From positions 1,156,432 to 1,220,431 of the forward strand of contig CAVRDU010000005.1 of assembly GCA_963719985.1 (NCBI GenBank): 64,000 nt of DNA. Reading direction: 5' to 3'. The notes beneath the pieces are model-generated. The model saw only the letters and a program-made list of their open reading frames with translations. It searched no databases and was not told the DNA's origin. The DNA comes from Candidatus Aminicenantes bacterium (lineage in GTDB: Bacteria > Acidobacteriota > Aminicenantia > Aminicenantales > Saccharicenantaceae). Shown one piece after another: positions 2,368-48,060 of this stretch (position 1 is the stretch's first letter; every line of letters begins with the position of its first letter). The translations under genes were made by a program, and so were the position numbers.

Positions 2368-2787
2368 ATGCTCAAAAAGCTCACGCGCTGGTCCAGGATC
2401 AAGTCGCCCTGGATCCTCCACCTCAACTCCGGCGCCTGCAATGCCTGCGACATCGAGATCGTCGCCGCGCTGACGCCGCGTTTCGACGTCGAGCGCTTCG
2501 GCATCCTGCTCAAGGCCACGCCGCGGCACGCCGACGTCATCGTGGCCAGCGGCCCGGTGACCCGCCAGATGAGGGACAGGATCATCCGCATCTACGAGCA
2601 GACGCCCGACCCCAAGTTCGTCATCGCCGTGGGCGCCTGCGCCATGTCCGGCTGCGTCTACCGCGGCGCCTACAACATTCTGGGCGGCATCGACCAGGTC
2701 ATCCCGGTCAACATCTACGTGCCGGGCTGCCCGGCCCGGCCCGACGCCATCGTCGACGGCGTCGTCAAACTTCTGGGAAAACTCTAG
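2368..2787 (+). CDS. [NiFe]-hydrogenase small subunit, NuoB-like (MbhJ-like)
   Basis: The Cys ligands for the proximal 4Fe-4S cluster are present (CNAC, GACAMSGC, VPGCPARP). It is 139 aa with a GAGGAG RBS. Confidence 0.85.
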   Translation: MLKKLTRWSRIKSPWILHLNSGACNACDIEIVAALTPRFDVERFGILLKATPRHADVIVASGPVTRQMRDRIIRIYEQTPDPKFVIAVGACAMSGCVYRGAYNILGGIDQVIPVNIYVPGCPARPDAIVDGVVKLLGKL

Positions 2788-2803
2788 CCATTAAGGAAAT
2801 GTC

Positions 2804-3274
2804 ATGACCGACGCCGAACTCATCGACAAGATCAAGGCCGACCTGGGAGACCGGGTCGAGATCGCCAATCCCGCCCCGCGGCGGCTCTTCCTGAAGGTTT
2901 CGCCGCAGAACCTCGTGGCCGTCACGACGAGGCTCCGGGACGCGTTCGGGGTCGTCTTCCTCTCGACCATCAGCGGGGTAGACCTTGGCGCGACGTTCGA
3001 GATCGTCTACCATTTCTCCACGCCCGAGACGGACTACAACCTCCGGACGGAGATCCCGAGGGACCGTCCCCATGTCGCCAGCATCACGTCCGTCATCCCG
3101 GGCGCCATCCTGTACGAGCGCGAGCTCCAGGACATGTTCGGCATGGTCGTCGACGGCCTCCCCGATCCCCGCCCCCTCGTCCTCCCCGACGACTGGCCGG
3201 CGGGCAACTACCCCCTGCGGAAGGACTGGAAGCACGAGCGGCCCCAGGAAGTCATCCCCGGAGGTAAGTCATGA
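2804..3274 (+). CDS. NuoC-like 30-kDa subunit of the group 4 hydrogenase (MbhK-like)
   Basis: The 156-aa ORF has a NuoC-family fold signature (ERELQDMFG) and sits in operon position between the NuoB- and NuoD-like genes. Confidence 0.8.
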   Translation: MTDAELIDKIKADLGDRVEIANPAPRRLFLKVSPQNLVAVTTRLRDAFGVVFLSTISGVDLGATFEIVYHFSTPETDYNLRTEIPRDRPHVASITSVIPGAILYERELQDMFGMVVDGLPDPRPLVLPDDWPAGNYPLRKDWKHERPQEVIPGGKS

Positions 3275-15970: not shown

Positions 15971-16833
15971 CCGTCCGATCGTTCGCCAAAATCAACCTCG
16001 GCCTCGAGATCGTCCGCAAAAGGCCCGACGGCTACCACGACATCCGGACGCTCTTCCAGACGATCACCCTGGCCGACGAGCTCATTATCGAGCCGGCCCC
16101 GGCCGGGGCGCTCGAGCTCGAGGGGGACGATCCGGAGGTGGCCTGGGACAAGACGAACCTCGTCCACCGGGCCGCCGCGCTCCTGCGGCGATCGAGCGGG
16201 ACGGAGGCGGGGGTCCGGATCTCCGTCAGAAAAAGCGTCCCGGCCGGCCGCGGCCTCGGCGGGGGGAGCTCGAACGCGGCGGCGACCCTCCTCGCCCTGG
16301 ACGAGATGTGGGGCCTGGGGCTTGGCGCCGCCGGCCTGGCTCCCCTGGCCAGGAGCCTCGGGGCCGATGTCCCCTTTTTTCTCGAAGGCGGCCTCTGCCT
16401 GGGGGAGGAGATCGGCGACAAGCTGACCCCTCTCGCCGACCTCGATCCGTTGGCCTGCCTCCTCGTCGTTCCCCCCTTCCCCATCCCCACGCCGTCGATA
16501 TACGCCGGAGTGGGCCCGTCCTTGACTTCCCCGGGCAAAGACAGTAAAATTGGGCGCTTTCTGGAGTCCCGAGACTTCGGTCTTCTGGAAAACGACCTGG
16601 AGCGCGTCATTTTCCGGGCCCATCCCGAGCTCGAACGCTGGAAGAGCTTTTTGCGGGACGAGGGGGCCCTCGTCGCCCAGGTCAGCGGCTCGGGCTCGGC
16701 GGTCTACGGGCTTTTCCCCGACCCGGCGAGCGGCGAGAAGGCGCGGAGGAGGCTCCCCGGCGCGACGGACGCCCGGCTTGCGGCGACCCTGCCGCGGCGG
16801 GGCTTTAGGGCCCAGCTCGGCGCTGGGGCGTAG
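15967..16833 (+). CDS. ispE: 4-diphosphocytidyl-2-C-methyl-D-erythritol kinase
   Basis: It is a GHMP kinase with the PAGRGLGGGSSNAAATLLAL motif, 288 aa long. Confidence 0.92.
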   Translation: MTVRSFAKINLGLEIVRKRPDGYHDIRTLFQTITLADELIIEPAPAGALELEGDDPEVAWDKTNLVHRAAALLRRSSGTEAGVRISVRKSVPAGRGLGGGSSNAAATLLALDEMWGLGLGAAGLAPLARSLGADVPFFLEGGLCLGEEIGDKLTPLADLDPLACLLVVPPFPIPTPSIYAGVGPSLTSPGKDSKIGRFLESRDFGLLENDLERVIFRAHPELERWKSFLRDEGALVAQVSGSGSAVYGLFPDPASGEKARRRLPGATDARLAATLPRRGFRAQLGAGA

Positions 16834-16894
16834 CCAAGCGGAAAGGCAACGGACTTTGGCTCCGTCATCGGAGGTTCGAATCCTCCCGCCCCAG
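16824..16894 (+). tRNA. tRNA-Gln (anticodon TTG)
   Basis: A manual cloverleaf fit gives acceptor TGGGGCG/CGCCCCA, a D-arm, anticodon stem ACGGA/TCCGT with loop CTTTGGC (anticodon TTG), T-arm GGAGG-TTCGAAT-CCTCC and discriminator G. It is closely similar to E. coli tRNA-Gln including U1-A72. No CCA is encoded. Its 5' end overlaps the ispE stop codon. Confidence 0.85.
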
Positions 16895-16923
16895 TTCGGA
16901 CGATATACGACGAGGTAGGAACG

Positions 16924-23093: not shown

Positions 23094-23133
23094 CCGGGCA
23101 TCCCTTGAAACGCTATATATAAGGAACGGACCC

Positions 23134-24126
23134 ATGGGCATCTGGATCTTCCGCGTCTTCGTCATCAGCCTCATCACGATCGGCGGCTATTTCTACCCGC
23201 CGTTCAAGCTCGGCCCGACCCCGGGGGCCGGGGCGGCCTTCCTGGCCGGCGCCCTGATGATGTTCCTCGAGACCCGCATCCGCCGGGTCCCGTTCCGGGT
23301 CCTTTGGAGCGCCGGGTGGGGCCTCATCGCCGGGCTCCTCCTCGGCTGGCTGCTCGGCGCGATCTACCGCTCCGTCGTCCACACCAGCGAGATGGCCTCG
23401 TTCATCCGCATCTTCTTCCTGATCATCATGCCCTACATCGGGCTCCTCTTCGGGACCAAGAAGCCCGAGTGGCTCGAACCGGCACACCTCGCCTCGCTGT
23501 TCCGGGAGAAGCGGTCCGGCCGAAGCCACAAGGTCCTCGACACGAGCGTCATCATCGACGGCCGCATCGCCGACCTCTGCGACACGGGCTTCATCGAGGG
23601 GACGCTCGTCGTCCCCCGCTTCGTCGTCAAGGAACTCCAGCTCGTCGCCGATTCGCCCGACGCGCTGAAGCGGCAGAGGGGCCGCCGCGGCCTCGACGTC
23701 GTCGACCACCTCCAGAAGTCGTCCCAGGTCGCGGTCGACCTCTCCGATATGGACTTTCCCGAGGCCCAGGACGTCGATTCCAAGATCATCGAGTGCGCCA
23801 AGGCCATGGACGCCCAGATCGTCACCACCGACTTCAACCTCAACAAGGTCGCCCGCATCCACGGCATCAAGGTCCTGAACATCAACGACCTGGTCAACGC
23901 CCTCCGGCCGGTCGCCCTGCCTGGCGAGATCATGAGCGTCTTCATCCTCAAGGAGGGCAAGGAGAAGGAGCAGGGCGTCGCCTACCTCGAGGACGGGACG
24001 ATGGTCGTCGTCGACAACTCGCGGCGGATGATCGGACAGACGGTCGACATCACGGTCACCTCGGTCCTCCAGACGACGGTCGGCAAGATGATCTTCGGCC
24101 GATTCAGCGACGGGGAGACGACATGA
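23134..24126 (+). CDS. Membrane-anchored PIN plus TRAM domain protein (YacL family)
   Basis: It has N-terminal TM helices, a PIN-like domain (KVLDTSVIIDGRIADL) and a C-terminal TRAM-like domain. It shows radA-yacL-ispD-ispF synteny. Confidence 0.75.
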   Translation: MGIWIFRVFVISLITIGGYFYPPFKLGPTPGAGAAFLAGALMMFLETRIRRVPFRVLWSAGWGLIAGLLLGWLLGAIYRSVVHTSEMASFIRIFFLIIMPYIGLLFGTKKPEWLEPAHLASLFREKRSGRSHKVLDTSVIIDGRIADLCDTGFIEGTLVVPRFVVKELQLVADSPDALKRQRGRRGLDVVDHLQKSSQVAVDLSDMDFPEAQDVDSKIIECAKAMDAQIVTTDFNLNKVARIHGIKVLNINDLVNALRPVALPGEIMSVFILKEGKEKEQGVAYLEDGTMVVVDNSRRMIGQTVDITVTSVLQTTVGKMIFGRFSDGETT

Positions 24127-24788
24127 GCCGGACCGCGGCCCTCGTCGTCGCCGCCGGGGCGGGCAAGCGCTTCGGCGAGCCGAAGCAGTTCGCCTACCTG
24201 AGGGGCAAGCCGGTCCTCGAGTGGACCCTGGAGAGGTTCGAGGCCCATGCCGAGGTGGACGCCATCGTCCTCGTCCTCCCCGACGAGCGCGACCGGAAGC
24301 ACTACCGGATGCGCTACTCCAAGATCGTCGACATCGTGCGCGGCGGCGCGAGGCGGCAGGATTCGGTCTGGCAGGGGTTCCGCCTGCTCGACACCGCGTC
24401 GCCCGAGATCGTCCTCGTCCACGACGGGGCCCGGCCCCTGGTCGGGGCGGACCTCATCAGCCGGGTCATCGCCGCGGCCCGGGCCGAGGGGGCGGTCGTG
24501 CCGGTCCTGGCGATCGACGACACCCTCAAGGAGGTCCGCGACGGCCGGGTCGCCGGGACGGTCGACCGGACCTTCCTCGCCCGGGCCCAGACGCCCCAGG
24601 GGTTCCGCTTCGAGGTGCTCAAGAAAGCCCTGGAGGCGGCCCGGCGCGACCGGATCTACGGGACCGACGAAGCGGCCCTGGCCGAACGGCTCGGCATTCC
24701 CGTGGCCACGGTCCCGGGCGACCCGCGGAACATCAAGATCACGACCCCGGTCGACATCGACCTGGCGGAGGCGCTCCTCGATGCATAA
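24123..24788 (+). CDS. ispD: 2-C-methyl-D-erythritol 4-phosphate cytidylyltransferase
   Basis: The N-terminus carries VVAAGAGKRFG. It is 221 aa and its start overlaps the yacL stop. Confidence 0.92.
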   Translation: MSRTAALVVAAGAGKRFGEPKQFAYLRGKPVLEWTLERFEAHAEVDAIVLVLPDERDRKHYRMRYSKIVDIVRGGARRQDSVWQGFRLLDTASPEIVLVHDGARPLVGADLISRVIAAARAEGAVVPVLAIDDTLKEVRDGRVAGTVDRTFLARAQTPQGFRFEVLKKALEAARRDRIYGTDEAALAERLGIPVATVPGDPRNIKITTPVDIDLAEALLDA

Positions 24789-25260
24789 GATCGGCTTCGG
24801 CTACGACATCCACAGGCTCGAGGCCGGGCGCCGGCTCGTCCTGGGCGGGACCGACATCCCTCACGGAGCCGGTCTCCTAGGGCACTCCGACGGCGACGCG
24901 CTCGTCCACGCCGTCATCGACGCCCTGCTCGGGGCCCTCGGCGAAGGCGACATCGGGACGCTTTTCCCCGACACGGACGAGCGCTACCGGGGGGCGCGCA
25001 GCGCGGACCTTCTCGAGACCGTCGTGGGGCGGGTCCGGGAGCGCGGCGGCGAGATCGTCAACGTCGACGCGGTCGTCGTCGCCGAGGAGCCGAAGATCGG
25101 CCCCCACGCCGCGGCGATCAAGGCGGCCCTGGCGCCCGTCCTCGGCGTCCCGGAAGGCGCCCTGGGCATCAAGGCCAAGACGAACGAGGGGTTGGGGCCC
25201 GTCGGCGAGAAGCGGGCCATCGCCTGTTACGCCGTCGCCCTGGTCCGCTTTCAGGACTGA
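24781..25260 (+). CDS. ispF: 2-C-methyl-D-erythritol 2,4-cyclodiphosphate synthase
   Basis: The motifs GFGYDIHRL, GHSDGDALVHAV and FPDTDERYRGA are present. Confidence 0.93.
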   Translation: MHKIGFGYDIHRLEAGRRLVLGGTDIPHGAGLLGHSDGDALVHAVIDALLGALGEGDIGTLFPDTDERYRGARSADLLETVVGRVRERGGEIVNVDAVVVAEEPKIGPHAAAIKAALAPVLGVPEGALGIKAKTNEGLGPVGEKRAIACYAVALVRFQD

Positions 25261-25287
25261 GCGTTTCTGTCGGTTCGGCCGTGGAGC

Positions 25288-25555
25288 GACTCGGAGGTCA
25301 GCCTCCCCGGCCGGGAAAGTCCTTCACGCCGGTCCGTGCGCCGGACTCGGCGGCAAAACAACTCGCTCGGCTTACGCTAAGCCTCGCTCAAACACGTTTT
25401 GCCGGTTTGCAGGCAAACTCCCCTTGTCCGGCACGCGTCCCGACTAGACTTCCCCTACACCGAGTTCGGCTGACCTCCTCGCCGGTTAGGGCGGCCTCCC
25501 TTGGGAGAACGGCAGGCTGACGAGGCCCTGCCGCGGCCTGTTCGATGGAGACGGG
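25288..25555 (+). repeat. Copy A of a roughly 210-270 nt element with terminal inverted repeats. It is a candidate structured ncRNA (sense strand +) or MITE-like repeat, and is about 90% identical to an inverted copy at 46325-46600.
   Basis: It is intergenic between ispF and the carboxypeptidase gene. It has terminal inverted repeats GGAGGTCAGCC and GGCTGACCTCC and internal hairpins (GGCAAAAC/GTTTTGCC, GGCTTA-CGC-TAAGCC, GTTTGC/GCAAAC). Compensatory changes relative to copy B preserve the pairings. Confidence 0.55.
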
Positions 25556-25614
25556 CGGTTGACTCGGCGCAGCGTTCCGGCTATCCTCGGCGTATTCACC
25601 GACGAGGAGGCCAC

Positions 25615-27531
25615 ATGGACAAGCGCGCGCGGAAAGTCATCGTTCCGGCGATCTTCGCGGCCGCGGGCGTTATCGCCCTGACGGCGCAGGATCAGGGCCT
25701 GCGGGGCCGGGAGAGCTTCGAGCCGAGGCCGACGAAAGCGTACATCGTCGGGGGCGTCCGTCACGGCGCGAGCTTCTTCCCCCGGGCCGGCTACGAGTTC
25801 ACCAAGCCCAAGGCCGCCGGGGAGATGGACTTCCTCCACTACCACACCTACGACGAGGTCAACGGCTTCCTCGAGAAGTGGGCCGCGGACCACCCCGACA
25901 TCGTCGAGCTCTATTCGGTCGGGAAATCCTACGAGGGCCGGGAGATCTGGCAGATCACCATCACCAACAAGACGACCGGCAAGGACACCGACAAGCCGGC
26001 CATGTTCATCGAGGGCAACCGGCACTCCGGCGAGGTCACGGCGGCCGAGTGCGCGCTCTGGTTCGCCGACCACATCATCCGGGGCTACGGCAAGGACCCG
26101 GGGCTGACGAAGCTCGTCGATACCAAGGCGATCTACGTCCGGGTCAAGAACAATCCCGACGGCTCGATGCTCTACCTGAACACGGCCCAGTCGAACCGGA
26201 GCACGGTCCGGCCCTACGACGACGACCGCGACGGCCTTCTCGACGAGGACCCGCCCGAGGACCTCGACGGCGACGGCTTCATCCTCCAGGTCCGCAAGAA
26301 GGTCGAGCCCGGGAAGGGCACGATGGTCGTCGATCCCGACGACCCTTCGGGCCGGCTCATGAAGCGGGCCGAGCCGGGCAAGGGCGACTATGTCGTCTCC
26401 TCCGAGGGCGTCGACAACGACGGCGACGGCCGGACGAACGAGGACGGCATCGGCGGCCTGGACCTCCACCGCAACTACCCGGAGAACTGGCGGCCCATGC
26501 CCGGCCGCGACCTGACCGGACGCGGCTGGACCCAGGGCGGGGCCGGCGAGTATCCGCTCTCCGAAACCGAGACGCGGGCCGTCTTCACTTTCCTCCTCGA
26601 GCACCCCAACGTCAGCGTCGTCCAGACGATGGACACGACCGTGCCCATGCTGCTCCACGGCCCGTCGACCAGCCGGATGAGCGAGTCGATGTTCCCCGAG
26701 GACATGAAGATCTACCAGTACTTCGACGAGCAGGGCAAGAAGATCACCGGCTACGCCAGCGCCGGGGACACCTATTGGGACTACGCCAACATGGGCCGCG
26801 GCGACCGCGAGATGAGGGCCCGGGCCGCGGAGATGGGCTTCGAGGTCCCCGACGAGCCCCAGGGCAGGCCGCTCTTCGGCCACTCCCCCGACTTCGGCTA
26901 CCTCTATTACGGCGCCGTCTGGTACGGCGACGAGCTCTGGAACGGCGGCCGGCTCAAGGACTACGACGGCGACGGCCGCGTGACCGAGCTCGAGAGCCTG
27001 CGCTTCATCGACGAGGAGCTCGGCGGCCGCTATTTCAAGCCCTGGACGAAGGCCCACCACCCGGTCCTCGGCGAGGTCGAGATCGGCGGCTTCAACCCCA
27101 AGTTCTGGCGTCAGAACCCGCCCGTCGAGCTCCTCGAGGAATGGATCAAGAAGGAGGCCCTGTTCAATCTCCTCCTGGCCCAGTCGCTGCCGCAGGTGCA
27201 GGTCCTCTCCGCGGAGATGAAGCCGGTCCGGAAGGAAGCGGACACGTACGAGATCGTGGCCGTCTTCACGAACGAAGGCTTCCTGCCGACGGCCCTCAAG
27301 ATGGCCGAGCGGGTCAAGATCGTCCGGCCGGACGCGGTCTCGGTCCGGCTCCCGGCCGGGGCCGAGCTCGTCGGCGGCCGGGCCCGCCAGGAGATCGGCC
27401 ACCTCAAATCGAACGAGCGCAAAGAGGTCCGGTGGAAGATCAAGGTCAAGCCGGGCACGGCCGGCGAGGCCGAGGTCTCGATCCAGTCGACGCGGGGCGG
27501 CGTGGCCCGCAAGACTGTCAAGATCGGCTAG
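25615..27531 (+). CDS. Secreted M14-family zinc carboxypeptidase
   Basis: It has a signal peptide and an M14 core (HYHTYDEVNGFLEKWAADHPD, GNRHSGEV). It is 638 aa. Confidence 0.8.
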   Translation: MDKRARKVIVPAIFAAAGVIALTAQDQGLRGRESFEPRPTKAYIVGGVRHGASFFPRAGYEFTKPKAAGEMDFLHYHTYDEVNGFLEKWAADHPDIVELYSVGKSYEGREIWQITITNKTTGKDTDKPAMFIEGNRHSGEVTAAECALWFADHIIRGYGKDPGLTKLVDTKAIYVRVKNNPDGSMLYLNTAQSNRSTVRPYDDDRDGLLDEDPPEDLDGDGFILQVRKKVEPGKGTMVVDPDDPSGRLMKRAEPGKGDYVVSSEGVDNDGDGRTNEDGIGGLDLHRNYPENWRPMPGRDLTGRGWTQGGAGEYPLSETETRAVFTFLLEHPNVSVVQTMDTTVPMLLHGPSTSRMSESMFPEDMKIYQYFDEQGKKITGYASAGDTYWDYANMGRGDREMRARAAEMGFEVPDEPQGRPLFGHSPDFGYLYYGAVWYGDELWNGGRLKDYDGDGRVTELESLRFIDEELGGRYFKPWTKAHHPVLGEVEIGGFNPKFWRQNPPVELLEEWIKKEALFNLLLAQSLPQVQVLSAEMKPVRKEADTYEIVAVFTNEGFLPTALKMAERVKIVRPDAVSVRLPAGAELVGGRARQEIGHLKSNERKEVRWKIKVKPGTAGEAEVSIQSTRGGVARKTVKIG

Positions 27532-28909
27532 ATCGACCGGAGCCCGGCTTTCCGGCCGAGAGGCCGTAGGTCTTGACCTTGTAGGCGAGCATCCGCTCGG
27601 TGATGCCCAGCGCGCGGGCGGCCCGGCTCTTGACCCCGCCGGCCTCCCGGAGGGCCATACGGATCTCCTGCGTCTCGAGGCGGCGGACCTTGTCGACCAG
27701 GGAATCGCCGGCCGTTCCGGGATCCTCGTAGGCGGCTTCCGTGAGGCTGAGGGGAAGGTCGGCGACGCCGAGGACGTCCCGCTCGGCGAATACGACCGCC
27801 CGCTCGACGACGTTCTCGAGCTCGCGGACGTTGCCGGGATAGGCGTGGCCCACGAGGGCGCCCAGGGCCTCCCGCGTGATCCCCTGGATCTTCTTTCCCT
27901 CCCGCTCGGCGAATTTCCTGAGGAAGAGGTCGGCCAGGAGCGGGATGTCCTCCTTCCTCTTGCGGAGCGGAGGCACGGCGATGGGGATGACGTTCAGGCG
28001 GTAGAAGAGGTCGGCCCGGAACCGGCCGCCTTTCATCTGGGTTTCGAGGTCCCGGTTGGTCGCGGCGATGATCCTGACGTCGGCCCGGAGCGCCTGGCTC
28101 GAGCCGAGCCTGTAGTACTCCCGGTCCTGGAGGAAGCGCAGCAGCTTGACCTGGGCCTCGGGGGCGAGGTCGCCGATCTCGTCGAGGAAGACGGTCCCGC
28201 CGGAGGCGGCCTCGAACTTGCCGATCTTCCGCTCGTGGGCGCCGGTGAAAGACCCTTTCTCGGCCCCGAAGAGCTCCGCCTCGATGAGGGTCTCGGGGAG
28301 GGAAGGGATGTTCAGCGCGACGTACGGGCCTTTCTTTCGCGCCGAGGACTGGTGGATCATCCGGGCCACGAGGTCCTTGCCGGTCCCCGTCTCCCCGGTG
28401 ACGAGGACCGTGGCCTCGCTCCGCGCGGCCTTGAGGACAAGGCGGGCGACGTCCTCCATGAGCGGGGAGGCGAAGACGAAGTTCCGGACGCTGAGCTTCT
28501 CCTCCAGGCGCTCCTGGAGGGACGAGATCTCTTTCTTGAGCTTCTGCCGCTCCGCGGCCCGCTCGAGGACGAGGAGGAACCTCTCGAAGTCGAGCGGCTT
28601 GACGATGTAGTCGTAGGCCCCGGCGCGGACGGCCTCGACGGCCCGCTCGATGTTCCCGTAGGCGGTGACCATGATCGGCGTCACCAGGGGATTGGCCGCG
28701 AGCACGTCCCGGATGACGTCGATGCCCGTTTCGTCGCCGAGCTTGTAGTCGACGACGGCCACGTCGACCGGGTTGCGGAGCACGGCCTCGAGGGCCTCCT
28801 TCCGGGAAGCGGCCTCGACGACCGGGAAGCCGCGCGCCTCCAGGTTCTTCCGGATGAGCTGGCGCTGGACGGGATCGTCCTCGACGATCAGGATGAGGGG
28901 CTCGTTCAT
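27518..28909 (-). CDS. Sigma54-dependent response regulator (NtrC family enhancer-binding protein)
   Basis: It has a REC domain (LIVEDD...D54), an AAA+ sigma54-interaction domain (GETGTGKDL, GAFTGA-like GSFTGA, ESELFGAEKG) and a C-terminal HTH. The probable start MNEPLIL is at 28909. Confidence 0.92.
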   Translation of the reverse strand: MNEPLILIVEDDPVQRQLIRKNLEARGFPVVEAASRKEALEAVLRNPVDVAVVDYKLGDETGIDVIRDVLAANPLVTPIMVTAYGNIERAVEAVRAGAYDYIVKPLDFERFLLVLERAAERQKLKKEISSLQERLEEKLSVRNFVFASPLMEDVARLVLKAARSEATVLVTGETGTGKDLVARMIHQSSARKKGPYVALNIPSLPETLIEAELFGAEKGSFTGAHERKIGKFEAASGGTVFLDEIGDLAPEAQVKLLRFLQDREYYRLGSSQALRADVRIIAATNRDLETQMKGGRFRADLFYRLNVIPIAVPPLRKRKEDIPLLADLFLRKFAEREGKKIQGITREALGALVGHAYPGNVRELENVVERAVVFAERDVLGVADLPLSLTEAAYEDPGTAGDSLVDKVRRLETQEIRMALREAGGVKSRAARALGITERMLAYKVKTYGLSAGKPGSGRSSRS

Positions 28910-28910
28910 G

Positions 28911-30152
28911 TCACGCTCCAGGAAGCTCGATCCGGAATTCCGTCCCGTGGCCTTCGCGGCCGCGGACATCGATCGTTCCGCCGTGCGCTTCGATGATCCT
29001 TCTGGTCAGGTACAGGCCTATCCCCATCCCTTTCTCCTTGGTCGTGTAGAACGGCTCGAAGACACGGGCCGCGGCTTCAGGCGGCAGGCCGGGCCCGCCG
29101 TCGTGGACGATGACCTCGACCTTCTTGCCGATCCGCCGGCCGCGGGCCCGTACGGGCGCGTCCGGCGAGGCCTCGATGGCGTTCTTCAGGACGTTGAGGA
29201 AGGCCTGGACCAGGAGGTCCCGATCGCCGGACAGGAGGACACCCGGAGCGGGCTCGACCTCGAGGCGCGACGGCGCGCCAGGGACCTCGGCGGCCAGGCT
29301 CTCCGCGGCCTGTCGCAGAACGTCGTCGAGCGACAGGGCCTCGAGGTCCGGCCGGACGGCCTTAACGACGCGCGAGAACCGGTCGACGATGCGGGCGATC
29401 GTCCGGACCTGGGCCTTTCCGAGATCGACGTCGCTCTTGGCCTCCGGGGGGGACTTGCGGCCCAGGAGCTCGAGGGCGAGGGCCAGGCTGTTGAGGGGGT
29501 TCTTGATCTCGTGGGCGACGCCCGATGTGAACGCCGAGATCTCCCGGAACCTCTCTTTCTCGAGCCGCTCGGTCTCGGCCTCGCGGGCCTTGGCCACGTA
29601 ATCCGACTGGAGCCGGTAGAGGCCCCGGAAGAAGATGGCGCCGGCGAGAAGGATGAGCCCGGCGATGAGGTAGGAGGTTCGCCGGGACGAGGCGATCATC
29701 TCCTCCATCCCCGCCAGGGCATAGCCCAGGTAGAGGAAGTACGCGCGGCCGCCAGCGGCCGAGAAGGCCGAAAGAGAGCTGTAGATCTTGCCGGCGGGGG
29801 ACTCGATGACGCTCGATCCCCCGGACCGGGCGTCCCTGAGGGAGATCGGGAGGTAGCCCTCGTATCGGGAGTTCCAGGCCAGGACGTTCTTCTCCGCGTC
29901 GAGGAGGGCGACGAAATAGATGTTCTCCCCGGACAGGATGGCCTCGAGGACCTCCTCGGGGGCCCTGCCCTCGTCGAGGAAGTGGGAAGCCGTCGTCCGG
30001 AGGATGCCCGACGTGGCCTCGAGCTGATCGTGGACGAGCCCTTCCGTCCGGCGCTTCAGGTCGGCCTGGGCGAGGACGGACGACAGGGCGAAGAAGACGA
30101 GCACGCCCAGGAAGGGGAGGACGAAGAAAAGGAGGACGCTGCGCCGCTTCAA
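28911..30152 (-). CDS. Sensor histidine kinase with periplasmic sensing domain
   Basis: It has two TM helices flanking a roughly 140-aa periplasmic domain, a HisKA domain (SGVAHEIKNPLNSL) and a HATPase_c domain (HDGGPGLP, GMGIGL). Confidence 0.9.
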   Translation of the reverse strand: MKRRSVLLFFVLPFLGVLVFFALSSVLAQADLKRRTEGLVHDQLEATSGILRTTASHFLDEGRAPEEVLEAILSGENIYFVALLDAEKNVLAWNSRYEGYLPISLRDARSGGSSVIESPAGKIYSSLSAFSAAGGRAYFLYLGYALAGMEEMIASSRRTSYLIAGLILLAGAIFFRGLYRLQSDYVAKAREAETERLEKERFREISAFTSGVAHEIKNPLNSLALALELLGRKSPPEAKSDVDLGKAQVRTIARIVDRFSRVVKAVRPDLEALSLDDVLRQAAESLAAEVPGAPSRLEVEPAPGVLLSGDRDLLVQAFLNVLKNAIEASPDAPVRARGRRIGKKVEVIVHDGGPGLPPEAAARVFEPFYTTKEKGMGIGLYLTRRIIEAHGGTIDVRGREGHGTEFRIELPGA

Positions 30153-30583
30153 ATGCCGCCGAACCTCTTGATGCCCCGTTTCCGCTGTCCGCCCTGCCAG
30201 CGGGGGAAGCCCCGCTTGTCCCGGAGCGTGAGCGTTTCGCCCCGGAACTGGAGCTCGCGGGCGATGATGGTCGCCTTCCCGTCGGGGGTCTCCGAGAGGG
30301 AGCCTATGCCCTTCACCCTCTCGCCGCCGTGGATGTCCTCTTGGAAGAACCAGGACGGGCTGACCTCGACGCTGACCATCTTCTCCCGTCCGGGCGCCTC
30401 GATGCGGAGGACGAGAAAGGGGGCCGTCCCCTGGTAGCGGGGTTCGAGGACGATCTCCCGGACCGTCCCTTCGAAGCGGACCTCCTTGTCGACGTCGTAG
30501 AAGTGTCCGGCGGCCGTCTGCCCCGCGGCCGGGACCGCGGCGAGCGCCGCGAGCAACGGGATGAGCCAGGCCGTGCGTTTCAT
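30149..30583 (-). CDS. Small periplasmic protein (signal peptide), hypothetical
   Basis: The 144-aa protein starts MKRTAWLIPLLAALAAVPAAGQ. The longer ORF extension to 30988 is spurious. Confidence 0.6.
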   Translation of the reverse strand: MKRTAWLIPLLAALAAVPAAGQTAAGHFYDVDKEVRFEGTVREIVLEPRYQGTAPFLVLRIEAPGREKMVSVEVSPSWFFQEDIHGGERVKGIGSLSETPDGKATIIARELQFRGETLTLRDKRGFPRWQGGQRKRGIKRFGGI

Positions 30584-39355: not shown

Positions 39356-39451
39356 CGGCCGGCGGGTCTCCTTGCGTTCGCGGCGCGGCTGTGCTATGCT
39401 CGGATCAAAGGGTGATCGAGCCAGCCCAAACCAGCTTTGGGAGAATCTTCC

Positions 39452-39796
39452 ATGAACAGAAGGCTGATACGGCCTAACCTCACCGAGATCAAGGAACGGA
39501 TGAGCCAGGACAAGGACCGGGAGAAGGAGGCCTCGCGGAAGCGGATGCATCCGCCGACCGACACTTTCGCCGAGAGCTACTACTACCTCAAGCAGATGAA
39601 CAAGAAGACCCCGGTGGCCGTCGTCTACACGAGCGGCGAGGCCGTCGAGGGCTACATCGAGTGGTACGACCGCAACTGCATCAAGCTCAACCGGGACGAC
39701 GCTCCGAACCTCCTCATCTACAAGGCCAGCATCCGCTGCGTCTACAAGGTCGGCGAGGCCCCCGAGCCCGAAGGCGAGCCCTCCGGCGGGAAATGA
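39452..39796 (+). CDS. Sm-like (Hfq-like) protein with an N-terminal extension
   Basis: The segment VAVVYTSGEAVEGYIEWYDRNCIKLNRDDAPNLLIYKASI parallels the Hfq Sm1/Sm2 pattern ([39 protein letters not shown]). The stop overlaps the pdxA start. Confidence 0.55.
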   Translation: MNRRLIRPNLTEIKERMSQDKDREKEASRKRMHPPTDTFAESYYYLKQMNKKTPVAVVYTSGEAVEGYIEWYDRNCIKLNRDDAPNLLIYKASIRCVYKVGEAPEPEGEPSGGK

Positions 39797-42484: not shown

Positions 42485-43003
42485 TCAGGCGGCGGCGCGG
42501 GCCTTGGCCGTCTTGAAGCAGCGGGAGAGGGTGTCCAGGAGCTTCTCCTCGACCTTGGACGACGGCGAGGCGGCTGCGAGCGAGATCTCGGACACGATGA
42601 GCTCCTTGGCCTTCTCCATCATCTTTTTCTCGCGGAACGAGAGGGGCTTGTGGAGGCTGAGGTAGTACAGGCTCTTCAGGACGGTGGCCATGTCGTAGAG
42701 CGTGCCCGACTTCATCAGGTTGAGGTGCTCCTTGTAGCGCCCCTTCCAGTCCGTCGTGACGTCGATATCGCCGTTCCCCATGAACTCGTAGATCTTCCGG
42801 ATGGACCCCTCCGTCACCGGGCGGCGGATGCCGATCTCGAAGGCCGTCGCGCTCGGCACGGTGACCAGGGTGTTGTTGGAGATGATCCGGAGGTGGAAGA
42901 CCATGAAGCTCTGGCCGTCGAAGGCCTGCTCGCGGATGCCTTCGATGACGCCCAGGCCCTGATTGGGATAAATGATCTTATCGCCGATCTTGAGAGATTT
43001 CAT
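42485..43003 (-). CDS. CarD/CdnL-family RNA polymerase-binding transcription factor
   Basis: It has a CarD N-terminal Tudor-like domain (KIGDKIIYPNQGLGVIEGI). Confidence 0.85.
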   Translation of the reverse strand: MKSLKIGDKIIYPNQGLGVIEGIREQAFDGQSFMVFHLRIISNNTLVTVPSATAFEIGIRRPVTEGSIRKIYEFMGNGDIDVTTDWKGRYKEHLNLMKSGTLYDMATVLKSLYYLSLHKPLSFREKKMMEKAKELIVSEISLAAASPSSKVEEKLLDTLSRCFKTAKARAAA

Positions 43004-43256: not shown

Positions 43257-43609
43257 ATGAGCGCCTGACCCCTGTCGAGAGAATCCGTAAGAAAGGCGAT
43301 TTTGCCGGCCTTTACAGACGGGGCAGCCGCTTCAGGGGAGGGTTTTTCACCCTGGTCTTCCTGAGAAACGGGCTCGGCCACAGCCGGTTGGCGGTCGTCG
43401 CCAGCCGGAAGGTCGGGTCCGCGGTCGTCAGGAACAGGGTCAAACGGAGGTTCCGGGAGCTCTTCCGGAGGGAAAAGGGGCTCCTGGGGGAACCGCTCGA
43501 TCTTATCGTCATAGCCCGGCCGGAGTCGGGCGGGGCCGCCTGGGCCGAGCTCCGGGACGCTTACACCTCGGCGTTGACAACGATAGGTCGTAAACGGATA
43601 TCATCGTGA
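43253..43609 (+). CDS. rnpA: RNase P protein component
   Basis: The RnpA RNR motif region ([19 protein letters not shown]) is present. The start overlaps the rpmH stop. Confidence 0.9.
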
Positions 43610-43815
43610 AAGCTGTCGCGCTCCTCCTGATCAGGGCGTACCAAATGACTCTGTCCCCCCTTATCGGCAGCCATTGCCGGTACCACCCCACCTGCTCCGC
43701 CTACGCCCGGGAGGCCATCGAGAGACACGGCCTCCTCCGGGGCGTGTCCCTGGGCCTCCGCAGGCTCCTCAGATGCCATCCCTTCCACGCGGGCGGGATC
43801 GACCCCGTCCCCTGA
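43606..43815 (+). CDS. yidD: Membrane protein insertion efficiency factor YidD
   Basis: The motif [33 protein letters not shown] is present. Confidence 0.9.
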
Positions 43816-43827
43816 GAGTGAGAGATC

Positions 43828-45489
43828 ATGGAGAAACGACTCGTCCTGGCCATCGTGCTGTCGTTCCTGGTGCTGATGGGCTATCAGTACCTGTTCAACA
43901 AGCCGGATAAGGCCGCCGTCAAACCGGCCGTTACGGCCGGCGACGTGCCCGCCGCGCCCATACCGGGGACCGCGGGCGAAGCCCGCACCGAAACGAATCC
44001 GGCCGCCTCCGAGGCCAAACCGGCCCCCGTCGAGCCCTCCCCGGCGCCGGCCACGGCCGCGGTGGCCGTCGAGGCCGAGGCCGAGGTCGTCGTCGAGACC
44101 AGCCTCTATCGGGCCGTCTGGTCCAACAAGGGCGGTGTCCTCAGGAGCTGGCAGCTCAAGGAGCACGAGGACAGCCGCAAGGAGCCGCTCGAGCTCGTCC
44201 CCGACCTGGCCCGCGAGATCGGCCGCTTTCCCTTTTCGCTGGGCCTCGACGACGCCGAGCTCGCCGGGCTCCTCAACTCGGCGCTGTTCGAGGCCTCGAC
44301 GGCCTCTCTCGACCTCGCGGACGGGGCGGGCGGAGAGCTCCGCTTCGCCTTCTCCGACGGCGCCTCGGTCCAGGCCGAGAAGGTCTTCCGCTTCACCGGA
44401 GGGAGCTACGCCTTGGATACCGAGGTCAGGGTCTGGAAGGACGGCCGCCCGGTCTCCCCTTCGGTCCTTTGGGGGCCGGGGATCAGCAACCTCACCGCCG
44501 CCGACATGAAGCAGAGCTTCAGCGCGGCCAGGGGTTCCGCGGTCTACACGGGCGGGAAGGTCTTCCGGATGAACGAACGGAAATTCAAACCCGGAGAGAA
44601 CACGTACAACTTCGTCGACTGGGCCGCCTACGAGGAGAACTACTTCGTCGCTCTGTTCGTGCTGCCCTCCCAGAAGGGCCAGGCGGCCTTCCTCCGCGAA
44701 TCGGCCGAAGGCCAGGCCCCGGTCCATTTCCTCTACGTGACCGAGCCGCGGCGGGCCTTCATCGGGCCCAAATCGGCCGACGTCCTCAAGGCCTTCGGTT
44801 CCGACGCGAAGAAGGTCGTCAACTTCGGGATGTTCGGCAGCATCGCCGAGATCCTCCTCGTGGCCGTCAAGTTCTTCCACAAGCTCGTCCCGAACTGGGG
44901 CGCCGCCATCATCCTCCTGACGATCGTCATCAAGATCCTGTTCTTCCCGCTGACCTACAGCTCGACGAAGTCGATGGCCAAGATGGCCGACCTCCAGCCG
45001 AAGATCAAGGCCATCCGGGCGAGATACAAGAAGTCCAAGACCGACATCGAGCAGCGCAAGCAGATGAACGAGGAGATGATGCGGCTCTACAAGGAGCAGG
45101 GCGTCAATCCGGCCGGCGGCTGCCTGCCCCTCCTCATCCAGCTGCCTGTGTTCTGGGGCGTCTTCCGGATGCTCGTCGTCGCCGTCGAGTTCCGCCACGC
45201 CCCCTTCGCCCTCTGGATCACCGACCTCTCCGTGAAGGACCCCTACTACGTGACGCCCATCCTCATGGGCATCACCCAGTTCATATCGCAGAAGATGACG
45301 CCGACCTCGGCCGACCCGTCGCAGGCCAAGATGATGCTCGTCATGCCCTTCATAATGACCATATTTTTCATCAACTTCCAGAGCGGCCTGGTCCTCTACT
45401 GGCTGACCACCAACGTCCTCCAGATCGGGCAGCAGGCCCTCATGAACAAGATGATGCACCGTCAGCCGGCCACCGCCAAAGCGAGATGA
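43828..45489 (+). CDS. yidC: Membrane protein insertase YidC
   Basis: It has an N-terminal TM helix, a periplasmic domain and a conserved C-terminal 5-TM core (LPLLIQLPVFWGVF). It is 553 aa. Confidence 0.95.
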   Translation: MEKRLVLAIVLSFLVLMGYQYLFNKPDKAAVKPAVTAGDVPAAPIPGTAGEARTETNPAASEAKPAPVEPSPAPATAAVAVEAEAEVVVETSLYRAVWSNKGGVLRSWQLKEHEDSRKEPLELVPDLAREIGRFPFSLGLDDAELAGLLNSALFEASTASLDLADGAGGELRFAFSDGASVQAEKVFRFTGGSYALDTEVRVWKDGRPVSPSVLWGPGISNLTAADMKQSFSAARGSAVYTGGKVFRMNERKFKPGENTYNFVDWAAYEENYFVALFVLPSQKGQAAFLRESAEGQAPVHFLYVTEPRRAFIGPKSADVLKAFGSDAKKVVNFGMFGSIAEILLVAVKFFHKLVPNWGAAIILLTIVIKILFFPLTYSSTKSMAKMADLQPKIKAIRARYKKSKTDIEQRKQMNEEMMRLYKEQGVNPAGGCLPLLIQLPVFWGVFRMLVVAVEFRHAPFALWITDLSVKDPYYVTPILMGITQFISQKMTPTSADPSQAKMMLVMPFIMTIFFINFQSGLVLYWLTTNVLQIGQQALMNKMMHRQPATAKAR

Positions 45490-46178
45490 TCATGAACAAC
45501 GAGACAAAACCCGAGACCCCGCAGCCGGCGGAAATCCAACCGGACGATACGAAGGCCGCTGACTCAAAGCCGGCCGAAGAGCGTCCGGAGTACTCCGGCC
45601 GAAACCTCGAGGAGGCGATCAGCCTGGCCGAGCACCGGCTGAAGCTGCCGCGCGAAAATTTCAACTACGAGATCGTCACGGAAAAGACGAGGCTCTTCGG
45701 CCTGAAGAGCAAGGAGATCGTCATCCGCGCCTGGGCCAAGGACGAGGCCGCCGGCGACGCCGCCGAGCGCTTTCTCGCCGAGCTCATGACCGTGTTCCCG
45801 CTGGACCTGACCTACCAGGTCAAGCGGCGCCCGGACATCGTCTTCGTCGTCTTCGACGGTCCGGACAAGGCCATGCTCCTGCGAAACGACGGCTCGCTCC
45901 TCCTCTCCCTGCAGCACGTCCTGAACAAGCTCTCGCCGGTCAAGGTCCAGGTGGACTGCGAGTTCTACCGTAAGCGCAAGGAGAAGAGGCTCAAGGAGTA
46001 CGGGCAGCGCGTCGCCCGGCAGGTCGCCGAGACCGGCCGCGAGGAGGTCCTCGACCTCATGAACCCGTACGAGCGTCGGATCATCCATATCGTCGCCAAC
46101 GAAGTTCCCGGCGTCACCAGCGAGAGCATCGGCGACGGGTTCCTCAAAAAGGTCAAGATCTTCAAGGCCCCTCGCTAG
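45486..46178 (+). CDS. jag: Jag/KhpB-family RNA-binding protein (KH and R3H domains)
   Basis: It has a C-terminal R3H motif (NPYERRIIHIVANEVPGVTSESIGDG) and lies directly after yidC. Confidence 0.85.
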   Translation: MIMNNETKPETPQPAEIQPDDTKAADSKPAEERPEYSGRNLEEAISLAEHRLKLPRENFNYEIVTEKTRLFGLKSKEIVIRAWAKDEAAGDAAERFLAELMTVFPLDLTYQVKRRPDIVFVVFDGPDKAMLLRNDGSLLLSLQHVLNKLSPVKVQVDCEFYRKRKEKRLKEYGQRVARQVAETGREEVLDLMNPYERRIIHIVANEVPGVTSESIGDGFLKKVKIFKAPR

Positions 46179-46324
46179 CCCGGCCGCGGAGGGGCCTCGG
46201 GGATCCGCTCCGTTCGCTGCGGCCATTCTTCACGCCGTCCCGGTCCGGAGCCCCTTCTTAGGTCTCCGTCCCGATGACGGCTAAATGGCCGCTTTATGCT
46301 CACACCGGGATGCCCCTCAACCCC

Positions 46325-46600
46325 TCATCCGCGGCCTCGTCGATTTGTCGTTTTTCCGAGGGAGGCCGCCCCAAGTGGCGAGGAGGTCAGTCGAATCCGG
46401 TGTAGGGAGAGTTTAGGCGGGCCGCGTGGCGGACGAGGGCAGTTTGCCTGCAAACCGCCAAAACGTGTTTGAGCGAGGCTTAGCGCAAGCCGAACGAGTT
46501 GTTTTGGCGCCGAGTCCGGCGCACGGACCGGCGTCAAGAACTCTCCCGGCCGGGGAGGCTGACCTCCGAACCGCTCAGCGGCCTCCCTCGCTACTAAAAA
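46325..46600 (-). repeat. Copy B (inverted orientation) of the structured element seen at 25288-25555; candidate ncRNA transcribed on the minus strand
   Basis: The reverse complement aligns to copy A at about 90% identity over roughly 205 nt, with further similarity in the flanks. It sits between jag and mnmE, divergent from the mnmE promoter. Confidence 0.55.
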
Positions 46601-46629
46601 TAGTATGCAGTCGAACTGATCGACGGCTA

Positions 46630-46658
46630 TTGTCAACGGGGACGGCGTCCCTTAGAAT
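46630..46658 (+). promoter_or_regulatory. Sigma70-like promoter for mnmE (TTGTCA, 17-nt spacer, TAGAAT)
   Basis: The -35 element lies at 46630-46635 and the -10 element at 46653-46658. This implies that the real mnmE start is the ATG at 46683. Confidence 0.45.
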
Positions 46659-46682
46659 GGATTGCCAGACGACAGTACGCCC

Positions 46683-48053
46683 ATGCTCGAAGACACGATC
46701 ATCGCCATAGCGACGCCGCCGGGGTTCGGCGGGCTGGGCGTCGTCCGGATAAGCGGCCCGAAGGCGCTGGCCGTGGCCGGGCGCGTATTCGAGGCCAAGC
46801 GGGCGGTGAAGAGACCCTTCCCGGTAGGGCGGCCGGTCTTCGGGACCATCCGTGACCCGGAGAGGGATTCGGCCCTCGACGAAGCTTTTTTGACCTATTT
46901 CAAGGCGCCCCGGTCTTATACGCGGGAGGACGTCGTCGAGCTCAGCGCCCACGGCAGCCCGGCGGTCCTCGAGACGATCCTCCGGGGTGGCGCGAAGGCC
47001 GGCGCCCGCATCGCTCGGCCAGGGGAATTCACCCTCAGGGCCCACCTGAACGGCCGCCTGGACATCATCCAAGCCGAGGCCGTCAACGACCTCATCCGGG
47101 CCGTTTCCCTGCCTCAGGCGCGAATATCGTACGGCCAGCTCGGCGGCAGCCTATCGCGCCGGGTCGCGGGCCTGCGCGGCCGGCTGGTCGCGCTGCTCGC
47201 GGCGGTCGAGGCCGGACTGGAGTTCCCCGAGGAGGGCCTCCGGTCGGACCCCCGGACCTGGAGGCGCTCTCTCGCCTCGGTCATCTCCGACATCGAGCGT
47301 CTCGTCGTGAGCCACGAGGCGGGTCGGGCCCTCGGCCTGGGTGTCACGCTGGCCATAGCCGGCCGGACCAACGTCGGAAAATCGACCTTGTTCAACGCCC
47401 TCCTCGAGGAGGACCGGGCCATAGTCACGCCGTTCCCGGGAACGACCAGGGATTTCCTGCGGGAGCGGTTGGTCATCGACGGCTTCATCTTCAATCTGGT
47501 GGACATGGCCGGACTGGGGCGGGCCGCCCACCCTGTCGAAAAGCGCGGGGTCGCCAGGGGCCGGAGGCTCGCCGGACAGGCGGACGGCCTGATCGTCGTC
47601 TTCGACGCCTCGAGAAGATGGAGCGGCGAGGACGAAGAGCTCGTGTGGCGCTTCCGTAGGAAGAGAGCCGTTTTCGTTCTGAACAAGTCCGACCTGCCGG
47701 CAAAGACCGACAGGGAGAAGCTCCGCGAGGTCGCCGGCGAGAGCCCGGCCGTCGAGGTCTCCGCGCTCAGGGGAAAGAACATCGGCGCCCTCCGCGAGGC
47801 CATCCGGGTCCACTTCGTCCCCCGGACCCCGGCCGAGGAAGAGACGATCGTACACGCCCGCCAGAAGGACCGCCTCGAGGAGGCCCTGGAAGCCCTGCGC
47901 CGGGCGGACACCCTCCTGGCCAGGCGGCATTCCGAGGAGGTCCCGGCCGAGGAGATCCGGGCCGCCATCGGCTTCATCTGCGAGCTCACCGGGGAGGTCC
48001 GGGCCGAGGAGGTCCTGGACGAGATCTTCGGCCGCTTCTGCGTCGGTAAATAG
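46683..48053 (+). CDS. mnmE: tRNA modification GTPase MnmE (TrmE)
   Basis: The N-terminus reads [22 protein letters not shown], the G-domain has [12 protein letters not shown] and DMAGL, and the C-terminus ends in CVGK. Confidence 0.93.
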
Positions 48054-48060
48054 GGACGAT

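Follow-up and report, generated by a model that had tools for sequence, protein, structure and literature searches.

Two intergenic spacers of a Candidatus Aminicenantes genome contain inverted copies of a sequence that can fold into a long, branched hairpin. This raises the question of whether they are twin genes for a small structured RNA, as proposed in an initial annotation made without database searches, or members of a repeat family. The copies, A and B, lie in a stretch of 64,000 nucleotides (assembly GCA_963719985.1, contig CAVRDU010000005.1, positions 1,156,432 to 1,220,431 of the forward strand) that we refer to as the window and number from its first letter. We find that the element is real, non-coding, absent from Rfam 15 and a member of a large modular family. 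Our tentative reading is that of a dispersed, structured hairpin repeat, and a gene for a structured RNA is weighed below as an alternative.

Two full copies in the window

Copy A occupies 25266-25535, with the minus strand as the best-folding strand, and copy B occupies 46325-46594 on the plus strand. Both match R1, a covariance model of the family, with 214.1 bits for A (E 3.5e-52, model positions 1-270) and 227.7 bits for B (E 1.5e-55). They are inverted copies with 86.9% identity over 251 nt (25270-25530 versus 46333-46583, E 2e-78); the figure given initially was about 90%. No further stretch with similarity comparable to that between A and B was found when the 64 kb window was searched. 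The description of copy B as the sole close relative of copy A misses a third, core-less relative at 46172-46384, and the window (66% G+C) holds three family members. Copy A is placed between ispF (YgbB domain, ending at 25260) and a gene for an M14 peptidase (starting at 25615). Copy B is placed between jag (R3H and Jag_N domains, ending at 46178) and mnmE (starting at 46683). All four flanking genes are on the plus strand.

Open reading frames (ORFs) of 79 and 103 amino acids overlie the copies on the strand preferred in the initial annotation, and A and B share an open frame that runs through each copy in the same register, as would be expected of a small protein-coding gene. However, the substitutions between A and B fall 12/8/8 by codon position across the overlying ORFs and affect 6 codons synonymously versus 20 non-synonymously. 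The invariance of the core nucleotides shows no third-position pattern, and the translated ORF resembles just one called protein among 5.8 billion. A small protein gene is hardly credible in the face of these observations; we regard that reading as refuted for practical purposes, and the initial annotation was right to state that no ORF accounts for the conservation. Readings of the core as the tag of a transfer-messenger RNA (tmRNA) or as a small ORF were rejected on the same codon pattern and because ARAGORN detected no tmRNA in the window.

The family was suspected from the start to be uncatalogued, and this is borne out. With Rfam 15 the whole window yielded a single match at the gathering score, a tRNA at 16824-16894. 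At E<=10, the two element regions gave chance matches only, all of them sub-threshold (asR3, MEG3_2, mir-375, Scr2736 and DLG2-AS1_2); the match to mir-375, for example, scores 24 bits versus a threshold of 46.7.

Relatives in other genomes

Species-representative genomes were scanned with a 20-mer from the arm of the element (helix P2), which returned one true relative (locus L010), one shortened "mini" element picked up by chance (L008) and eight chance matches. L010 comes from an Acidobacteriota metagenome-assembled genome and is syntenic with window positions 23121-30510 at 84-86% identity. Its orthologue of copy A is 91.9% identical over 209 nt. At four-fold degenerate sites of the two genes that flank copy A, identity between the window and L010 is 84% and 76%.

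Metagenomes were queried with a 20-mer from the core, CCTCGCTCAAACACGTTTTG, which matched at least 120 metagenome contigs. No viral contig matched this pattern, and no relative of the element was found in the plasmid collection. BLAST places the element in 121 loci, with 99 complete and 90 distinct copies among the matches listed, and 77 sequences are less than 88% identical to each other in pairwise comparison. Retrieval with the core 20-mer forced 20 core (apex) columns to be invariant, so the apex conservation reported below is biased by the sample. The family is at least low-multicopy and derives from Acidobacteriota/Aminicenantes-type genomes. We found no relevant RNA motif or repeat described for Acidobacteria or Aminicenantes in the literature.

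Of the 121 retrieved copies, 22 are cut by the end of a contig or locus, roughly three times the chance expectation (loci with cut copies include L015, L035, L036, L044, L056, L057, L076, L082, L085, L098, L100, L104, L129 and L130). This suggests that assembly breaks occur at the element.

Covariation and the folding strand

Conservation of the fold was assessed in two alignments. Alignment A3 was made with MAFFT from 36 diverse sequences without regard to structure, and a 76-pair consensus from individual folds was mapped onto it. It has 83% of cells paired versus 37-46% when the partners are slid by 1-3 columns. Double changes occur at 39 of the 76 pairs (29.0 ± 2.1 in shuffles) and in 249 cells (91 ± 7.5 in shuffles), and none of 500 shuffles matches the observed value on any of five measures. 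Alignment A6, in which 83 full copies were aligned with R1 and which is fitted to the structure, has 86% of cells paired versus 35-43% with slid partners, 52 of 76 pairs with double changes versus 33.9 ± 2.2 in shuffles, and 635 double-change cells versus 216 ± 16. For A6 too, none of 500 shuffles equals the observed values on the five measures, and the slid controls of the two alignments are 2- to 5-fold below what was observed. In helix P2 (A6 columns 68-82/263-275), 90.5% of cells are paired and double changes are present at all 11 pairs. Covariation extends to every helix, including the small hairpins of the apex. We conclude that the structure is kept by compensatory change and is under selection, and that the element folds as a single strand.

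The initial annotation had invoked compensatory change on the strength of three differences between A and B. The swap of GGCAAAAC/GTTTTGCC to GCCAAAAC/GTTTTGGC is indeed a true covarying pair family-wide (CG:58, GC:8), and the orthologue in L010 has a C-C intermediate at this pair. The other two examples fail. In the hairpin thought to change from G-U to C-G, both changes are in the 5' strand of helix P5 and the 3' partner is identical in A and B, so they are uncompensated; GGCTTA/TAAGCC falls in the apical loop. The broader claim of an uncatalogued structured family with compensatory changes is nevertheless well supported, as covariation is far above that in shuffles and slid controls. It had also been suggested that a transposable element of the miniature inverted-repeat kind (MITE) would reveal itself by near-identical copies lacking covariation. 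Covariation is strong, although MITE-like or repeat-like behaviour does occur in this family.

Which strand folds was evaluated from the minimum free energy (MFE) and from the mismatches. For copy A, the MFE is -135.9 kcal/mol on the minus strand (z -4.4) versus -111.1 on the plus strand (z -1.5); for copy B, it is -151.4 kcal/mol on the plus strand (z -8.6) versus -123.2 on the minus strand (z -4.0). The G-rich strand (minus for A, plus for B) has the lower MFE in 84/84 homologues, with means of -121.8 versus -104.0. On this strand, A6 has 437 G-U or U-G cells versus 168 A-C or C-A cells (271 versus 168 without two fixed G-U pairs), with an excess of G-U at 38 pairs and of A-C at 15. The corresponding counts in A3 are 202 G-U versus 90 A-C cells. 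Unpaired and mismatched positions on the G-rich strand are purine-rich, and tandem G.A is conserved. Given the lower MFE, the G-U excess, and the purine-rich mismatches with tandem G.A, the folding strand is probably the G-rich one. The argument from G-U wobbles that had been used to assign the structure to the plus strand of A and the minus strand of B is contradicted, since it is the opposite strand that folds better and holds the G-U excess. The orientation of the element shows no relation either to the strand that bears most of the coding sequence of the locus (41 versus 37 loci) or to the GC skew of the locus, which is positive in 35 of 78.

Anatomy of the full element

The full element measures about 270 nt, and members with an additional outer helix (P0) can reach about 320 nt. 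Helices P1-P5 form an imperfect rod of about 75 bp (about 75-95 bp counting P0), in which the largest internal loop of the consensus is about 7 nt. Many members carry P0, for example as GGGGUGUUCC/GGAAUACCCC, which covaries with GGGGCGAUGCC/GGCACGCCCC. Copy B has an extra outer helix, CGAGGGAGGCCGC/GCGGCCUCCCUCG, formed by 46357-46369 with 46578-46590. At its tip the rod carries a three-way junction that is nearly invariant, measures about 80 nt and has two hairpins, H1 and H2. H1 has the form GUUUC-N4-GAAAC and switches to GUUUG...CAAAC (C-G to G-C). H2 consists of a CCAAAACG/UGUUUUGG stem, an internal loop and GC-GA-GGCUU-AGCGY-AAGCC-GA-GC, and its apical stem switches from U-A to G-C.

Mapped by the columns of A6, the rod of copy A from P2 inwards (P2, P3, P4 and P5) spans 25293-25478 on the minus strand and its apex spans 25347-25425. 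Within this apex are H1 at 25405-25418 (GUUUG-CCUG-CAAAC) and H2 at 25352-25403 (a CAAAACG/UGUUUUG stem, tandem G.A and the loop UAGCGU). The apex of copy B is at 46435-46513 on the plus strand, with H1 at 46442-46455 and H2 at 46457-46508. The "terminal inverted repeats" recognised initially in copy A, GGAGGTCAGCC (25293-25303) and GGCTGACCTCC (25468-25478), are present and do pair; they are actually helix P2, the sequence of which covaries freely across the family.

Mean pairwise identity is 92% in the apex and 64% in the arms, and the termini are least conserved. There are 47 invariant columns, 20 of which were forced by the search pattern; 23 of the 27 others are within the apex. Two recurrent arm types can be distinguished, type I (GGGAAAGUU/AACUUUCCC) and type II (GCGGUGAUU/AAUCACCGC). 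The apex is constrained in sequence and the arms are mainly required to pair. H1, written as DNA (GTTTC-N4-GAAAC), was considered as a parS-like ParB site and rejected, as its central bases vary and its stem covaries (GTTTG...CAAAC), which identifies it as a hairpin.

Mini elements, fragments and chimeras

The third relative in the window, at 46172-46384 on the minus strand, is a mini element. R1 was built without minis and matches it at 46172-46374 (32.1 bits, E 5.9e-07). It has type-II arms, as in many full elements, and a short apex, CGGGACGGAGAC-N9-GGCUCCGGACCGGGACGGCGUG, in place of the junction. Its identity is shown by alignment with the minis of L059, L013 and L054/L010 and with full type-II elements. 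The mini begins a few nt past the stop codon of jag (46176-46178) and is arranged head-to-head with copy B, the bases of the two rods being about 17 nt apart. Like the G-rich strand of the full copies, one strand folds better than the other: -118.8 (z -4.6) on the minus strand versus -105.5 (z -2.7) on the plus strand.

A hidden Markov model built from five minis identified, with scores of 115-144 bits, loci outside the training set: L008 (Ca. Aminicenantes RBG_16_66_30), L053, L029 (two), L048, L063 and L118. Minis are present in 10 further loci, and in about 8 loci minis or fragments are additional to full copies. Minis are at least as frequent as full elements.

A remnant of a mini also adjoins copy A, at 25497-25535, where pairwise alignment of the window with L010 reveals an outer end only (GACGAGGCCCTGCCGCGGCC). 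L010 has the complete mini at 2781-3011, head-to-head with the copy-A orthologue. About 300 nt of L010 (in the region 2640-3060) are missing from window positions 25497-25600, an imprecise deletion that left the outer end of the mini. This mini at locus A is the one case in which presence and absence of a member were both seen.

Other rearranged forms include a core-only fragment (L048, 422-496), arm fragments that adjoin full copies in L108, L052, L087 and L128, and chimeric cores in L093, L116, L071 and L053. Also observed were variants that are about 100 nt longer or in which half of the invariant core is unrelated (L093 5402-5785, L116 7032-7407, L111 4721-5099, L071 and L053). Further rods were also sought in the window with an inverted-repeat scan that allows no gaps, but its outcome is uninformative because bulged rods escape it.

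Dynamics at orthologous loci

The yidC-jag-mnmE region is shared by the window, L087, L115 and L029, and L059 has jag without an mnmE match. Relative to the window proteins, Jag is 82-88% and MnmE 68-80% identical. Read in gene direction, the rods after jag are an antisense mini followed by a sense full element in the window; an antisense mini remnant and a sense full element in L087 (993-3455); an antisense full element and a sense mini remnant in L115 (1-4109); an antisense full element and a sense mini in L059 (2-1063); and a full element followed by two minis, all antisense, in L029 (5811-8568). A full element is retained after jag, and its orientation, its partners and their number vary. 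The post-jag spacer is a local rearrangement hotspot. Variation in the number and orientation of rods at one orthologous locus, together with the dispersed contexts and the truncated and core-less variants, does not agree with the stable single-gene picture drawn initially.

In shared contexts, identity between two elements is 56-89%, and the differences comprise 198 compensated versus 51 uncompensated double changes, along with single changes of which 154 break a pair and 107 are conservative. In several shared contexts the arm type differs between genomes. These differences reflect either compensatory evolution in situ or replacement or conversion from other copies.

The region around copy B (43606-50686) is a cluster of the origin-proximal type, with yidD, yidC, jag, mnmE, mnmG and parA, and carD is divergently oriented (42485-43003). 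Among the scanned ORFs of the window there was none recognisable as dnaA, and the GC-skew profile of the window has no clear switch. These observations neither favour nor rule out an oriC flanked by A and B.

Gene context, promoters and terminators

The elements occur in more than 30 gene contexts, 23 of which recur in at least two loci and many more of which were seen once. The commonest neighbour family was found in at most 11 of about 120 loci. Downstream genes are diverse, of housekeeping type, and include ffh, mnmE, fusA-like, accA, accB, efp, ileS, leuS, asnS, nusA and purC, among others. Based on crude gene calls from G+C content at third codon positions, the strands of the flanking genes relative to the folding strand are (+,+) in 25 cases, (-,+) in 23, (-,-) in 12 and (+,-) in 6. 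In 48 of 66 cases the first gene downstream runs in the same direction as the G-rich strand; in 11 of the 18 cases of opposite orientation, the rod is abutted by the stop codon of that gene.

A uniform scan found an inward sigma-70-like promoter upstream of the element in 1 of 88 copies. Just downstream, 34 of 85 have an outward sigma-70-like promoter, the modal class of which has a -35 box beginning at the last paired base. An example on the downstream side is TTGACT-17-TAGAAT before accA; a further 16 outward promoters are on the upstream side. The promoters of this lineage fit TTGACA-17 nt-TAGAAT closely (e.g., L103, L106, L107, L081, L038, L079 and window 46630-46658), and in at least six gene contexts the -35 box is within a few nt of the last paired base of the element. 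Some elements may carry an outward promoter or target TTGAC. In the window, the promoter of the M14 peptidase gene is at 25559-25587 on the plus strand (TTGACT-17-TATCCT), outside the element, which it does not transcribe. That of mnmE is at 46630-46658 on the plus strand (TTGTCA-17-TAGAAT), about 40 nt past the end of copy B. These two were the only promoters found near copies A and B in the window scan.

Flank profiles covering 110 nt on each side contain no conserved position. No U-tract terminator follows the element, and none found in the window scan fits copies A or B. Together with the near absence of inward promoters, this speaks against the discrete "twin" small RNA (sRNA) gene that was initially envisaged. 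The elements occupy the spacer from a stop codon to the promoter of the next gene, or the space between divergent promoters. A gene for an FmdB-type zinc-ribbon protein (MPLYEYxCxKCGKRFE...) is divergently transcribed, upstream of the element and on the opposite strand, in at least three distinct sequences (L120/L016, L058 and L033); the elements beside these genes belong to different arm types.

Elsewhere in the window, an ORF at 39437-39796 (plus strand, 119 aa) encodes an Hfq-family protein in which the Hfq domain begins at about residue 50 and is preceded by an N-terminal extension. A gene for tRNA-Gln (anticodon TTG) at 16823-16895 on the plus strand is the single RNA gene of the window according to Rfam and ARAGORN.

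Interpretation

We tentatively interpret the element, with somewhat less than even confidence, as a dispersed, recombining structured hairpin repeat that is ERIC-, BIME- or Correia-like in behaviour, with an apex that serves as recognition module and a rod that acts in cis when transcribed. In favour of a repeat are the three members in the window, the minis, fragments and chimeric cores, the copies cut at contig or locus ends, the diverse gene contexts with differing arm types, the changing rods after jag, the mini mostly deleted from locus A, and the scarcity of transcription signals belonging to the element itself. Spread and reshuffling would occur by recombination or through a putative trans-acting mobilising factor that recognises the fold of the single strand. 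That factor would have the apex as its sequence-specific recognition module and the arms as its scaffold. When transcription runs on from a neighbouring gene, the rod would form a very stable hairpin in the RNA that may block further read-through and 3' exonucleases or serve as a substrate for RNase III. It may also insulate the promoter that often abuts the 3' end of the element.

Several observations weigh against this interpretation. The pattern of conservation is the inverse of that in a transposase-driven MITE, the centre being invariant and the termini variable. We saw no conserved terminal inverted repeat (TIR) sequence, target-site duplication or associated transposase, the neighbouring ORF clusters having been inspected without a Pfam scan. 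About 620 kb of loci are without a second full copy, apart from one core fragment in L048, and a single 2.27 Mb contig (Ga0302251_1000001) has 2 matches among those listed (L032 and L084, one of each arm type). Presence can be old, given a full element in the post-jag spacer of five genomes with MnmE proteins that are 68-80% identical. The copy-A orthologue is 92% identical versus 76-84% at the flanking four-fold sites, and compensated double changes predominate among the differences between copies of one context (198 kept versus 51 broken). Nor can the G-U asymmetry be explained by read-through transcription, as the elements have no fixed orientation with respect to the genes beside them. The old presence, the conservation of the orthologue and the compensated changes fit a function selected in the host, possibly that of a genuine RNA. 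A purely selfish MITE is disfavoured by the inside-out conservation, the failure to see a TIR, target duplication or transposase, the seemingly few full copies, the old presence and the conservation of the orthologue above that of four-fold sites.

A different explanation is that full elements are trans-acting genes for structured non-coding RNA (ncRNA), with several paralogues per genome. The apex would then be a functional RNA that binds a conserved protein or RNA, and the covarying rod would be a stalk for stability or processing, such as an RNase III stem of the kind that flanks rRNAs, with transcription from non-consensus or distant promoters. Such genes would account for the strong covariation in all helices, down to the small hairpins of the apex, and for the fixed G-U pairs and conserved tandem G.A, which are typical of RNA. 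They would also account for the G-U excess on one strand of the element regardless of the orientation of neighbours and for apex conservation far above that of the arms. Persistence at orthologous loci with compensated changes, conservation of the orthologue above four-fold sites, and an orientation independent of locus coding strand and GC skew are as expected for an autonomous gene. We nevertheless find this explanation less likely. The scan that detects promoters for the downstream genes in 34 of 85 cases detects one upstream of the element in only 1 of 88, and neither flank has a position-specific signal within 110 nt. There is no U-tract terminator, and the -35 box or the stop codon of the next gene often abuts the 3' end. 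With rod bases about 17 nt apart, head-to-head pairs have no space for two promoters. Apex-less minis persist and are at least as frequent, and gene contexts are very diverse. A classical sRNA gene is thus disfavoured because promoter and terminator are missing, signals of neighbouring genes abut the element, pairs are tightly head-to-head, minis exist and contexts are diverse. A related and about equally probable outcome would be that full elements represent a novel kind of large structured RNA of Aminicenantes/Acidobacteriota, multi-copy and about 270-320 nt long, with a protein-binding or catalytic apex that is carried on, or cut from, an exceptionally long covarying stalk, and with minis as a sister class that shares the stalk. 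A hairpin mobile element recognised via its apex and not its ends would be just as new.

A structure that acts as single-stranded DNA (ssDNA) and not as RNA is improbable, but has points in its favour. The element could be a priming site similar to a single-strand origin, or a substrate for recombination or transposition in the style of IS200/IS605, RAYT or attC systems. The fold is strand-specific without a promoter or terminator, and the apical loop UAGCG(U/C) matches the CS-6 motif (TAGCGT) of the loops of ssoA origins (PMC5703833, PMC4598088). TTGAC is at a fixed offset past the 3' end in at least six contexts and could be a target motif. However, the simpler explanation of TTGAC is that it forms the -35 box of complete promoters in which the spacer is 17 nt. 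The element lacks the ssoA motif RSB, TTATGCCGAGAAAATTT; TTATGC alone is present, on the other strand. No relatives were found in the plasmid and viral collections. Elements that use the lagging-strand template are expected to be oriented with replication, and the lack of a link between orientation and coding-strand majority or GC skew weakens models of the IS200/IS605 type. In the clusters of neighbouring ORFs, again inspected without a Pfam scan, we noticed neither a Y1/HUH gene nor an integrase gene.

A role as cis-regulatory 5' leader of the downstream gene (a riboswitch, a T-box-like element or an attenuator) might be proposed from the frequent co-orientation of that gene with the G-rich strand (48/66), and from the many downstream genes with functions related to translation (ileS, leuS, asnS, efp, fusA-like, ffh, nusA and mnmE). 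Yet a complete sigma-70 promoter intervenes between element and gene, which places the element upstream of the transcription start and excludes a 5' leader there. Downstream functions are heterogeneous, orientation flips at one locus and no expression platform is present, so we consider this role very improbable.

Comparison with known systems

Bacterial repeats are known to occur as size variants, to be co-transcribed, to carry promoters and to affect mRNA stability; ERIC, for example, is co-transcribed with its neighbours and affects the fate of the mRNA, and repeats of this type have TIRs, target duplications and flanking TA (PMC3184786). As in ERIC, the present elements are intergenic in either orientation, form a long imperfect hairpin, exist as size variants with internal insertions or deletions, and are conserved in sequence across species at differing locations. 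The ERIC/IRU elements of Enterobacteriaceae are imperfect palindromes of about 127 bp, and the present element is 2-3 times longer. It also differs in the phylum in which it is found, in the lack of sequence similarity, in an apex that is a conserved three-way junction, and in a number of full copies that seems low. TIRs, target duplications and flanking TA were not seen.

A REP unit measures about 35 nt and a REPIN about 100 nt, and copy numbers can reach the hundreds. The REP, BIME and REPIN sequences of E. coli and Pseudomonas are similar to the present family as intergenic hairpins in alternating head-to-head clusters, with variable number and orientation and with compensatory upkeep. In those families, however, it is the arm, the recognition sequence of RAYT, that is conserved and the apex that is variable, the opposite of what we find here.

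Correia elements (CREE/NEMIS of Neisseria) carry or create outward promoters and sit 5' of genes (PMC3184786). The -35 box at the 3' end of the rod in our modal class is comparable, as is the coexistence of full and internally deleted forms (about 157 and 104 bp in Correia). The conserved 26-bp TIRs, TA duplication, IHF site and high copy number of Correia elements are not shown for the present family.

Among RNAs, 6S RNA and further regulatory RNAs of rod shape (about 200 nt) also have a fold closed by their 5' and 3' ends, and two paralogues occur in some genomes. Unlike 6S, the present element gives no match to the Rfam 6S model at E<=10, and a promoter and terminator of its own were not found. 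The consensus of 36-83 homologues is a near-continuous rod centred on a three-way junction, without a large central bubble, and the family is multi-copy with core-less variants. In rolling-circle plasmids, RNA polymerase recognises the ssoA origins, which are ssDNA hairpins that are long and orientation-specific (PMC5703833, PMC4598088). The present family shares with them a long, strand-specific imperfect hairpin and the conserved TAGCG(T) loop motif (CS-6). Unlike ssoA, it is chromosomal, without RSB motif, rep or plasmid context, or plasmid relatives.

Significance

Structured intergenic repeats and structured ncRNAs are already known kinds of element. The family itself is new and its pattern of conservation is unusual. 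It is large, strongly backed by covariation and missing from Rfam, and it comes from little-studied, mostly uncultured members of the Aminicenantes/Acidobacteriota, a lineage that is common in anoxic sediments and digesters. Whichever interpretation applies, annotation pipelines should mask the spurious ORFs that overlie the element. If these are RNA genes, they constitute a new class of large structured RNA. If they are repeats, they add a family of long hairpins conserved inside-out, with invariant apex and free arms, a pattern suggestive of some factor by which the apex is read. The family would then also offer a marker of genome plasticity and account for contig breaks in assemblies from this lineage.

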